DNA of 63,365 bases from IMG/VR virus record IMGVR_UViG_3300031566_000026, positions 1 to 63,365 of that record; one strand, given 5' to 3'. Under the pieces are notes generated by a model that did no database searches, was not told the origin of the DNA, and saw only the letters and a program-made list of their open reading frames with translations. Shown piece by piece: positions 54,397 to 56,417 of the stretch (its first letter is position 1; each line of letters starts with the position of its first letter). The position numbers and the translations under genes were made by a program. This DNA comes from a virus (taxonomy: Duplodnaviria > Caudoviricetes).

Positions 54397-54905
54397 GGCT
54401 TGGCACGTATCAACAATCGTGCGGGCCTCCACGAGGATACCGCTCCCTTTGTGATGTCCGTTCGGAATCGGTAGTTTCTTCCGTGCGTCGTGTCCGACCC
54501 TACGTACCGGGCGAATCCATCCACGACTTCCTCATGGCGGCGGGCCTCGCGTGATTCACAGGCAGGAGAGTCGCTGCCGATCTCCAGAGCCTTGGGGCTC
54601 GAACCACCCAAGGTTGACATCTCTCCGGTGCCTTTCGGCTGTCCGGTACCAGGGTGCGCGCTCGTACCCGCCGCCAGTTCTTCGCCATCGCCGTAGAAGT
54701 GCCCCCACCACGAATCGAAATACTCACGGTTAGGCTCGCCGCTGCCCTGAAAGATGAGCGCCGCCTGCCACGTCTCCCATGCGAGTCCCTCGATTCTCTC
54801 GGTGGGCCATTCCTCTCGGGGTGAACCATGAAGTGGGCAAACAGGGGAGACGCGAATGCACACGGCCTCATCCCACTGACACAGACAGCCATCGTCTTCG
54901 GGCAT
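54393..54905 (-). CDS. hypothetical protein carrying in-frame element copy 1
   Basis: Coupled at both ends; contains [15 protein letters not shown]...REARRH. Confidence 0.6.
54535..54676. repeat. 142-bp structured element, copy 1
   Basis: 10-bp terminal inverted repeat TGGCGGCGGG/CCCGCCGCCA; 13 mismatches to copy 2. Confidence 0.92.
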
Positions 54906-56054
54906 CACAGCTTTCTCTCCTTGAGTGCAGCGGCGAGGAAAGGCTTGGCCCTCTGCGACCAATCTGCCCAGTCGTCAATCATCGCATTCAGCCTGGCGTT
55001 CTCTTGCGTCAGGCGTCTGATCTCCTTCATGGCCGCACCGTTCGCCTCGAAAACTTCCCCTTCCTGTTCTCCCACAACACCTCCTTGGCTCTCAAGGGGG
55101 AGCCAAGTACGACCAGTTAATGCGTCGTCATGCAACCCTTCGTGTCCCCTCGGCAGACAGCAACGGGTCGCACCGTCAGGACCTACCGCGCCACACTGGA
55201 CGTATGCAGGTGCTTCCTTGCTCTTGGTCCTAGCACGTTTGCCCTCGAACGGGCGGTAGATCGTGTTGTTGTCGGGCTCGCGGAGAAGTTCACGGACGGC
55301 ATCAATCCTATCCGCGAACTGGCGGCACCCGACTGCGGTAAGGCCGTCGGCGTTCTCTGCTCCGTAGTATATCTCGTGGGCGATGTCCCTGAGTGCTAAC
55401 CGAGCATCATCATTTGCGCTCATTAGGTACCTCCCCTTGACCGGCGGGCATGGTCTGTTCCATTGACGTATCCCCAAAAGCAGCCGAGTGCGAAAACCAC
55501 AACGCACACAAGAAAGAACCGCTGTTCAATGCTCATCTTCCCTCGTCGGCGTAAGGTTGGCGGCGCGGATCGCATGGCGACGCCGAGCGGCGAACTCCTC
55601 CTCCTCTGTGACACGCGCCACGAAAAACAACTGCGTCTCCCCGTCCGGGTACTCGCCGTGCTTGGACCTGTACCACCTTGCCCACTCCTTTCGGCGTTGA
55701 GACACTGCCTCGTGAACCCCAGGCGACTCGTATTCGACTTGGCAGCCGCCCGTGCCGCATAAGAAGTGGGGCACCGACCCCGGGGGTGGCTCGTTCATGG
55801 ATTCTCTTCCTCGCTAGAGGTTGCACACAGATCAGCGATACCTTTCTGCATACAGCGCAAGGCTACGGATTCCGCCTTTGCGACTGCCACCTCAAACGTG
55901 TTGAATCGCTGCTTGAGCCGTTTGTCGCCAACACAGGCGACATAGGGGGGATCGTCCGATCCCTTCGGGCGGGTATTGTCCCAACTCACAGATAGGCGGG
56001 TTCCACCGTCCAGGGTGCGCCTCCACGTCGCGTACCTGCCCTCGATCCATTCGC

Positions 56055-56417
56055 TCATGGCTTTTTTTCCAGGAGGGAAGCCAAAACCGGCCTGGCTCGT
56101 GCCGCCCACTCGTTCCAGTCGTCTACCAATTCCCTGAGTTCTGCGGCCTTGTGTAGCATGGCAACCACCTTGTCCGTGGCAAAGACGCGGCAACCGTTAG
56201 CTGTTTCTTCTAGCCGCACGCAAGACACCTTGTCGGCCATCTCCCGGTACTCCGCTGCGGAATGGCGGCGGGCCTCCCGTGATCCACAGGTAGGAGACTT
56301 GCTGCCGATCTCCAGAGCTTCGGGGCTCGGACCACCCAAAGTTGACATCTCTCCGGTGCCTTTCGGCTGTCCGGTGCCAGGGTGCGCGGTTGCACCCGCC
56401 GCCATCTTCTCGCTCAT
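56055..56417 (-). CDS. hypothetical protein carrying in-frame element copy 2
   Basis: [29 protein letters not shown]...REARRHSAAEYREMAD. Confidence 0.6.
   Translation of the reverse strand: MSEKMAAGATAHPGTGQPKGTGEMSTLGGPSPEALEIGSKSPTCGSREARRHSAAEYREMADKVSCVRLEETANGCRVFATDKVVAMLHKAAELRELVDDWNEWAARARPVLASLLEKKP
56263..56404. repeat. 142-bp structured element, copy 2
   Basis: Same length and inverted repeat as copy 1; ungapped alignment. Confidence 0.92.

Follow-up and report, generated by a model that had tools for sequence, protein, structure and literature searches.

A candidate mobile palindromic cassette lying in frame within small genes of a soil phage

The IMG/VR record IMGVR_UViG_3300031566_000026, in the following called the window (the whole stretch of 63,365 bases), stems from a soil phage of the Caudoviricetes and contains two copies of a 144-bp cassette with inverted ends, each lying in frame inside a different small open reading frame (ORF). 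We consider this cassette to be probably, with some reservation, a non-autonomous mobile palindromic element similar to the Rickettsia palindromic elements (RPEs) and to intragenic MITEs (miniature transposable elements with inverted repeats), translated in frame and with its fold under selection. Among the observations behind this interpretation, we count as established the discreteness of the cassette, its presence in three ORF contexts, the shared frame and orientation in these contexts, the continuity of the frame and the preservation of a sense-strand-specific fold.

The cassette and its reading frame in three ORF contexts

A repeat search matched positions 54534-54685 to 56262-56413 with 89% identity. 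The two 142-nt cores (54535-54676 and 56263-56404, sense on the minus strand) were aligned by MAFFT without gaps and with 13 mismatches (10 transitions and 3 transversions), just as an earlier reading made from the letters alone (in the following called the sequence-only reading) had described them. Identity is 91% within the element and drops to background right at the inverted ends. Both copies are bounded by TGGCGGCGGG/CCCGCCGCCA; these inverted ends are perfect over 10 bp in both copies and over 11 bp in copy 2 (ATGGCGGCGGG/CCCGCCGCCAT). Within the window, exact matches to the 10-mer TGGCGGCGGG are confined to the four ends of the two copies. Allowing up to one mismatch, there are 28 occurrences versus 20.6 expected, so the 10-mer alone is unremarkable and it is the paired full-length repeat that is special.

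Together with one base on each side, the unit reads (A/C)TGGCGGCGGG ... CCCGCCGCCAT and comprises 144 bp or exactly 48 codons, which resolves the puzzle of a 142-nt core not divisible by three. The sequence-only reading had proposed a peptide of about 47 amino acids in the same frame; the shared frame was found in both copies, but the full unit encodes 48 amino acids. The copies lie 1.7 kb apart in a tightly packed, co-directional block of small genes, and no third copy was found in the window by nhmmer, tblastn or a covariance model. Coordinates of the copies and their host ORFs are as follows.

54534-54677, minus strand: cassette copy 1; 48 codons, CTG GCG GCG GGT ... CGC CGC CAT; ends TGGCGGCGGG/CCCGCCGCCA; 178.4 bits in cmsearch
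56262-56405, minus strand: cassette copy 2; 48 codons, ATG GCG GCG GGT ... CGC CGC CAT; ends ATGGCGGCGGG/CCCGCCGCCAT; 176.3 bits in cmsearch
54393-54908, minus strand: host ORF 1 (P0003, 171 amino acids as called in the database); cassette at residues 78-125
56055-56582, minus strand: host ORF 2 in its long form of 175 amino acids, with a TTG start at 56582; cassette at residues 60-107

Both copies are free of stop codons and are read in the same frame within the minus-strand ORFs 54393-54962 and 56055-56582. BLASTP of the two host ORFs gave meaningful identity only across the cassette, and the in-frame insertion into two unrelated ORFs that had been claimed before was thus borne out by ORF reading and protein comparison alike. 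Host ORF 1 has no match to a Pfam or PHROG family, and its stop codon overlaps the start codon of the downstream DNA methyltransferase gene (ATGA, 54393-54396). The long form of host ORF 2 begins with a CxxC..CxxC zinc-ribbon-like stretch located before the cassette (Zn_ribbon_8 with an e-value of 0.048, short of the cut-off). Its database form P0004 (120 amino acids) starts at the ATG at 56417, four codons before the cassette (residues 5-52), and a strong AAGGAGG at 56430-56424 precedes this ATG. Whichever start is taken, the cassette lies within the translated frame. The stop codon of host ORF 2 overlaps the ATG of the next gene in the same way (ATGA, 56055-56058).

From these stop/start overlaps it follows that the frame downstream of each cassette is a genuine coding frame, and therefore the cassette is either translated or removed as a multiple of three. 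Judged from the sequence, plain read-through would be the simplest reading and would suffice, because both flanks are coding in one frame and the cassette contains no stop codon. The resulting 48-residue segment is rich in Gly, Ser, Ala, Pro and Thr and is probably unstructured.

To find the peptide elsewhere, a set of 1.84 billion representative proteins was scanned with HMMER, yielding five proteins at a maximum e-value of 0.001, two of which were the window's own P0003 and P0004. A further one, P0005 (123 amino acids), matches the cassette peptide with an e-value of 3e-10 and has the same 48-residue boundaries within different flanks. Its ortholog P0009 (136 amino acids), added by a word search, carries the cassette at the same site. 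Both proteins possess an N-terminal hydrophobic helix, and both contain the cassette in the same frame and with the same boundaries between flanks unrelated to the window ORFs. They originate from short ENA contigs (at most 2.8 kb) and are known as protein only, not as DNA. Between P0005 and P0009, 41 of 48 residues are identical within the cassette, 30 of 47 in the N-terminal flank and 13 of 41 in the C-terminal flank. In total, there are four instances of the cassette in three unrelated ORF contexts, in one frame and one orientation, and we argue from three unrelated contexts with identical boundaries that the cassette is a discrete mobile unit. The two remaining HMMER matches, both outside the window, are P0006, a 424-amino-acid protein with about seven tandem repeats containing MPGTGSREARALC (e-value 1.7e-4), and P0007, a repeat protein of 3081 amino acids (e-value 3.2e-5). 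These matches are probably chance resemblances to the two conserved cassette ends, and we regard them as spurious.

Two observations on the host loci should be added. The C-terminal 47 amino acids of host ORF 2 (56055-56261) are paralogous to the end of the minus-strand ORF 54905-55507 (16 of 47 identical, e-value 1e-7), with the shared motif DDWxxWxxRAxPxLAxxLxxx; the block thus holds a small paralogous family, and the cassette is present in one member only, not in ORF 54905-55507. Moreover, a co-occurring relative, represented in run X1 by a contig of 570 nt and depth 6.6, has the 99 nt just upstream of cassette copy 1 (54687-54785) in diverged form (78 of 99 positions). In this contig, the segment sits between 56567 and 56690, upstream of the part of host ORF 2 with the zinc-ribbon-like stretch, and the joints contain 8 and 21 letters without a match, indicating a mosaic exchange or rearrangement that links the two loci.

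Predicted fold and constraint on the encoded peptide

The RNAalifold consensus of the two window copies comprises 44 base pairs. In element coordinates, a closing stem (1-11/132-142) and an inner stem (16-28/115-128) enclose hairpin A (31-52), stem B (53-91) and hairpin C (92-112). All hairpins named in the sequence-only reading (CCGG..GCC-GAAA-GGC..CCGG, CCUUGGG/CCCAAGG and GGAGA/UCUCC) are contained in this consensus, listed here for copy 1.

54625-54646, minus strand: hairpin A (element nt 31-52), CCGG-ACA-GCC-GAAA-GGC-A-CCGG with a GAAA loop
54586-54624, minus strand: stem B (element nt 53-91), AGAG/CUCU plus CCUUGGG/CCCAAGG with a variable loop; bears the covariation
54565-54585, minus strand: hairpin C (element nt 92-112), GGAGA ... 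UCUCC with a variable 11-nt loop

Hairpin A is identical in copy 2 (56353-56374), and its amino acids TGQPKG are retained in P0005. The differences between the window copies break none of the 44 pairs, and 8 of the 13 changes are unpaired. Two pairs changed on both sides (16/128 from G-C to C-G and 65/86 from C-G to U-A), and there is a single wobble change from U-A to U-G. Compared with shuffled sequences, the sense (minus) strand folds with z-scores of -4.0 and -2.8 in the two copies and the plus strand with -1.9 and -0.9.

The compensatory changes reported before, a G-C to C-G swap and changes in a stem, were hence found again, but as covariation between two copies they are not significant: 117 of 500 column shuffles equalled the observed value. 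Among 1000 random mutants of copy 1 with 13 substitutions each, 6.1% showed at least two 'compensatory' pairs; the alifold energy was as good or better in 12.3% and the minimum free energy in 3.5%, the energy measures being at about 2-4%. The two window copies alone therefore provide weak evidence.

Because of this weakness, we used P0005 and P0009 as an independent test, for which the fold was fixed beforehand from the window copies. The amino acid differences of these proteins force nucleotide changes at 18 distinct positions, 12 of them unpaired (in the bulge 57-63, in the loops of stem B and hairpin C and at position 37) and six paired. Only the pair 31/52 must break; 43 of the 44 pairs can still form. 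Pair 67/84 appears as U-A, U-G and C-G over the four sequences, with Leu23Ser turning the U-G of copy 2 into C-G, while Glu19Gly and Ile33Val turn A-U pairs into G-U. As deduced from the protein, pair 70/81 changes from G-C to A-U in P0009 via Gly24Asp together with Pro28Ser. When the 18 changes were relocated at random, a mean of 7.0-7.9 pairs were broken and the probability of at most one broken pair was 5e-5 to 1.5e-4, values that depend on nucleotides deduced from protein (Ser taken as UCN by parsimony), on pooling the related proteins as one change set and on a null model without coding constraints.

Some of the changed pairs can form on the sense strand only: 55/89 and 96/108 become G-U and 11/132 is U-G, in agreement with the stronger z-scores of this strand. 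Constraint at the peptide level looks different. Between the window copies, the ratio of nonsynonymous to synonymous differences (pN/pS) amounts to 0.68 in the used frame versus 0.67 in the +1 frame, and the GC content is flat over the codon positions (0.65/0.69/0.67). The cassette peptide is thus weakly constrained between the window copies. Since the amino acid changes obey base-pairing rules, it is the fold and not the peptide that is kept, and the sense-strand fold appears to be maintained by selection. The exchange of Gly for Asp paired with that of Pro for Ser would be a clear example of selection on a nucleic acid fold overriding selection on a peptide.

Two further structural claims of the sequence-only reading did not stand. 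The T-loop-like loop differs between the copies by a U to C change, and its codons are wholly replaced in P0005 and P0009 (GS/PS to ADN); the loop sequence is therefore free to vary. The 3′ end, likened to an acceptor stem, is simply the inverted terminal repeat.

Mobility, alternative explanations and known elements

How the cassette may have spread can be outlined from these data. By insertion or copying, it would have entered at least three unrelated small ORFs, each time in sense orientation and at codon phase 0; two of these are in the soil phage, and the third family (P0005/P0009) comes from other metagenome contigs only. Ribosomes would read through it, since its frame is free of stop codons and its length a multiple of three, adding 48 amino acids, and the host genes would survive; being translated in frame, the cassette would be tolerated. 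In host ORF 2, the added segment would sit between the zinc-ribbon-like stretch and a helical tail. Selection would preserve the shape of the sense strand, that is, the closing stem made by the ends, the GAAA-capped hairpin, the covarying 7-bp stem and the GGAGA/UCUCC hairpin. This fold may be the substrate of a copying agent, either a nuclease or transposase provided in trans and using single-stranded DNA or RNA, or hairpin recombination, with the 48-residue peptide as a presumable passenger. A bolder version, in our view a long shot, is a new class of self-propagating structured RNA or single-stranded DNA element of phages (for example a small ribozyme or a translatable mini-intron), the fold of which would catalyze or guide how it copies itself, at codon boundaries, into the sense strand of genes; the open frame of 48 codons would be an adaptation hiding the cassette from selection.

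Several results weigh against a mobile element, in addition to the limits of the P0005/P0009 test given above. No empty site was found in any collection searched, and insertion was thus not directly seen. Tblastn of P0002, P0003 and P0009 against 50,697 GenBank phage records yielded no relatives of the host ORFs, and in the 80 viral loci whose methyltransferase is most similar (up to 70% identity) there was no homolog of the 11 ORFs of the block at a maximum e-value of 1e-3. Neither copy has a target-site duplication (flanks GAAGAAC/TGAGGAA in copy 1 and GAGAAGA/TTCCGCA in copy 2). No transposase was detected among the 30 of 77 window ORFs that were scanned, in a record estimated to be 65% complete. 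The copy number is very low, with two per record and four instances overall, and searches with peptide patterns derived from the cassette alignment and from P0005/P0009 in IMG/VR, JGI metagenome contigs and GTDB species genomes confirmed no relatives. Finally, the use of one frame and one orientation in all three contexts, with other cassette frames open as well, is not what would be predicted for a purely passive passenger peptide.

The sequence-only reading had named empty-site alleles as a check; databases, related loci and run contigs yielded none. Assembly contigs of four runs over 53500-57500 break within the repeat, as expected since repeats do so, and among the matches listed (15 of 39 joints) none skips the cassette; two low-depth runs have no cover over copy 1, which does not count as evidence. 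A word search with P0001 returned only itself and P0004, and a search for longer proteins returned none. The covariance model, likewise suggested before, was run over the window and the 80 related viral loci (1.16 Mb) and recovered the two window copies only. DNA patterns of the exact or degenerate core and of the ends only gave 0, 13, 14 and 14 loci in IMG/VR, all of which proved, by nhmmer, blastn and visual inspection, to be matches by chance or coding motifs unrelated to the element. There was no cassette match by blastn in the GenBank phage records, no relative of the peptide in Pfam or PHROGs and no usable match in the ESM Atlas.

The rival that survives best, albeit an unlikely one, is a cis-acting functional element of the mRNA. 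This might serve in processing or stability (as an RNase target, for instance, or as a fold protecting the upstream message), or it might be a new self-cleaving ribozyme or a 144-nt mini-intron. The fold would then be kept for what the RNA does on behalf of the phage or of itself, with the peptide being incidental. The preserved, sense-strand-specific fold would suit it, as would the sense orientation of every instance relative to transcription and the spacing of the window copies (1.7 kb) within a single block of tightly packed, co-directional small genes. In addition, MITE transcripts are reported to affect neighboring mRNAs, as Correia/NEMIS elements do with RNase III (PMC2229807). On the other hand, no Rfam match was found at a maximum e-value of 10, including the small ribozymes and introns in Rfam, and no terminator-like site lies in the element. 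At 142 nt, the core is far below the sizes of group I and group II introns, and loops expected to form tertiary contacts vary freely. Moreover, the lack of stop codons and the exact multiple of three would be useless if the RNA was removed, yet both are needed for read-through.

More specific identities were considered as well. A tRNA or tRNA-like element was rejected, as ARAGORN (11 tRNAs) and the Rfam family RF00005 (10) find the array at 132-1095 and not the cassette; the T-loop-like hairpin is also separated from the 3′ strand by about 45 nt and has a non-conserved loop. With the covariance models of Rfam 15, no family of ribozymes, introns, riboswitches or others touches the element at a maximum e-value of 10. 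A terminator or antiterminator was rejected because neither copy contains or adjoins a terminator-like site; the region 54000-57300 contains three weak terminator-like sites versus 2.4 expected, none of them in or next to the copies. There is no indication of splicing or self-cleavage in the sequence, as the flanks are coding in the same frame and the cassette is free of stops. Inteins have an N-terminal Cys or Ser, a C-terminal His-Asn, a nucleophile at the +1 position and at least about 130 amino acids. The cassette encodes only 48, begins with (M/L)AAG and ends with RRH, the next residue being E, S or Q, and it has no splicing blocks. No reverse transcriptase, as required for a retron, was seen among the ORFs scanned, a scan that is incomplete. 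Bypassing of the T4 gene 60 type was discarded since no stop follows a take-off codon and the frame is open throughout, and a compensating frameshift does not account for the divergent center of P0005, as neither of the two remaining frames in the window copies yields its residues. Of the earlier proposal of a new mobile structured RNA, mini-intron, ribozyme or antitermination element, the RPE-like structured unit, bounded by inverted repeats and in frame within unrelated ORFs, has held, whereas intron, ribozyme and antiterminator found no support in Rfam or the terminator scan.

Rather improbable is a protein module, such as a flexible linker or a short binding motif, that was spread by recombination and whose fold is a by-product of GC-rich palindromic ends. 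It would explain why frame and phase agree in three contexts when at least one further sense frame and one antisense frame are also free of stops, and why the peptide ends are nearly invariant in the four sequences (AAGxxAHPGTGxPKG and EALExGxxSPxCxSREARR). P0009 has GRPKG where the others have GQPKG, and this GRPKG resembles the core of an AT-hook. Yet the pN/pS of 0.68 equals that of an unused frame, there is no GC signal by codon position, and relatives in Pfam, PHROG and the ESM Atlas are lacking. The replacements also track base pairing in a way that a peptide model does not predict (Gly24Asp with Pro28Ser; Leu23Ser from U-G to C-G), and the ten changed central residues coincide with predicted loops. 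Very improbable, lastly, is a cassette that never moved, with local segmental duplication or gene conversion in the phage and a distant common ancestor gene for P0005/P0009: the copies are only 1.7 kb apart, the 570-nt contig of the relative shows mosaic rearrangement between the two loci and the C-terminus of host ORF 2 is paralogous to ORF 54905-55507, but in every context the similarity stops right at the inverted ends, no resemblance is detectable among the flanks of the three ORF families and that paralog is without the cassette.

The preferred interpretation, a mobile palindromic element, finds its closest counterparts in bacteria. As far as described in the consulted parts of two publications (PMC2229807, PMC10969869), bacterial MITEs are 100-200 bp long, with terminal inverted repeats, pairing of the 5′ and 3′ ends, stable transcript folds and ORFs that are often fused in frame. 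The cassette fits this description with 142-144 bp, terminal inverted repeats and, as its sole frame, a 48-residue read-through peptide without family match. From the same sources, RPEs measure 105-146 bp with a 12-bp terminal inverted repeat and a target duplication that is unknown, and they reside in many protein genes and are translated (Delihas 2008, PMC2229807; Minnick 2024, PMC10969869). The analogy to RPEs drawn in the sequence-only reading is thus the right one by these traits. In the portions consulted, sizes (105-150 bp in RPEs, 142-144 bp here) and terminal inverted repeats (12 bp versus 10-11 bp) are similar, both have predicted pairing of the 5′ and 3′ ends and no clear target duplication, and in both a contiguous ORF is fused in frame into unrelated protein genes, translated and tolerated as peptide.

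There are differences, however. By HMMER and word search, the cassette peptide has no relatives beyond its own four instances, and the host is a GC-rich soil phage rather than an AT-rich intracellular bacterium. Two copies per genome contrast with tens of RPEs, the predicted fold is multi-branched with three hairpins in a closing stem instead of one long stem-loop, and all cassette instances so far are intragenic. Compared by description and not by sequence, the cassette would be, as far as can be told, an analog of RPEs and not a member of this family.

Other known elements are less similar. The Correia/NEMIS (107-bp form), ERIC and YPAL/RU-2 elements share the small size, the bounding inverted repeats, stable transcript folds and frames fused to host ORFs, but they mostly have TA duplications, are mainly intergenic and occur in hundreds of copies (PMC2229807, parts consulted), whereas the cassette has no visible duplication and a minimal copy number. 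The mycobacteriophage mobile elements MPME1 and MPME2 are likewise very small, with short inverted repeats, in soil phages of GC-rich hosts. The MPMEs measure about 440 bp and have a small ORF of their own. They interrupt genes or sit between them and are not read through in frame, and there is no sequence relation, the 50,697 GenBank phage records being without a cassette match. The put antitermination RNAs of HK022 and tRNA-like elements resemble the cassette as structured sense-strand RNAs with two copies in one early-gene block. In contrast, the cassette lies inside ORFs, is translated, has no Rfam or ARAGORN match and does not conserve the T-loop-like sequence, and there are no terminators near its copies to be read through.

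A keyword search of the open-access literature found no description of an in-frame palindromic cassette in a phage, which is not proof of absence; within the literature so searched, this appears to be the first phage example of an RPE-like element. Protein-coding palindromic repeats, treated as peculiar to Rickettsia and a few other bacteria, would then look to be present in a virus, too. A selfish cassette would stay invisible by being exactly 48 open codons, and small orphan phage genes would be seen to grow by the insertion of mobile linkers. For annotation this is a warning, as some 'domains' of phage ORFs may be nucleic acid parasites. The small, testable fold may offer a handle for finding the mobilizing activity.

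Genome setting of the record

The record has an estimated completeness of 65% and a GC content of 65%, and its minus strand carries nearly all candidate genes (77 candidate ORFs). It is found near-verbatim in soil metagenome runs; five DNA runs carry the stretch and no RNA run is listed. Family scans identified a large terminase, portal, head morphogenesis, major capsid, minor tail and collagen-like tail-fiber proteins. Likeness to GenBank phages at the DNA level is confined to the methyltransferase and involves mostly phages of Mycobacterium, Arthrobacter and Gordonia. From this, an actinobacterial host is a reasonable guess, but no more. At one end of the record, 11 tRNA genes form an array at 132-1095 on the minus strand (Asp, Gly, Asn, Tyr, Thr, Pro, Arg, Trp, Phe, Glu and Glu).

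The presence of a TET-associated glycosyltransferase (PF20691, e-value 5e-42) together with three DNA methyltransferases, one C5-cytosine and two N6/N4, suggests that the phage heavily modifies its own DNA. These genes, identified by family scans, are listed jointly.

62223-63323, 42985-44220, 44233-46086 and 53173-54396, minus strand: glycosyltransferase and methyltransferase ORFs

The large terminase ORF (40124-42619, minus strand) encodes 831 amino acids; its PHROG terminase matches are split (residues 70-330 and 436-816), and a LAGLIDADG_3 domain is located at residues 303-348, which suggests an intein or a homing-endonuclease insertion inside this ORF. In the tail region, there are two very large minus-strand ORFs, 6975-12671 (1898 amino acids) and 19794-23798 (1334 amino acids), both lacking a PHROG match at a maximum e-value of 1e-5; the sole domain in ORF 6975-12671 is a C-terminal Laminin_G_3.

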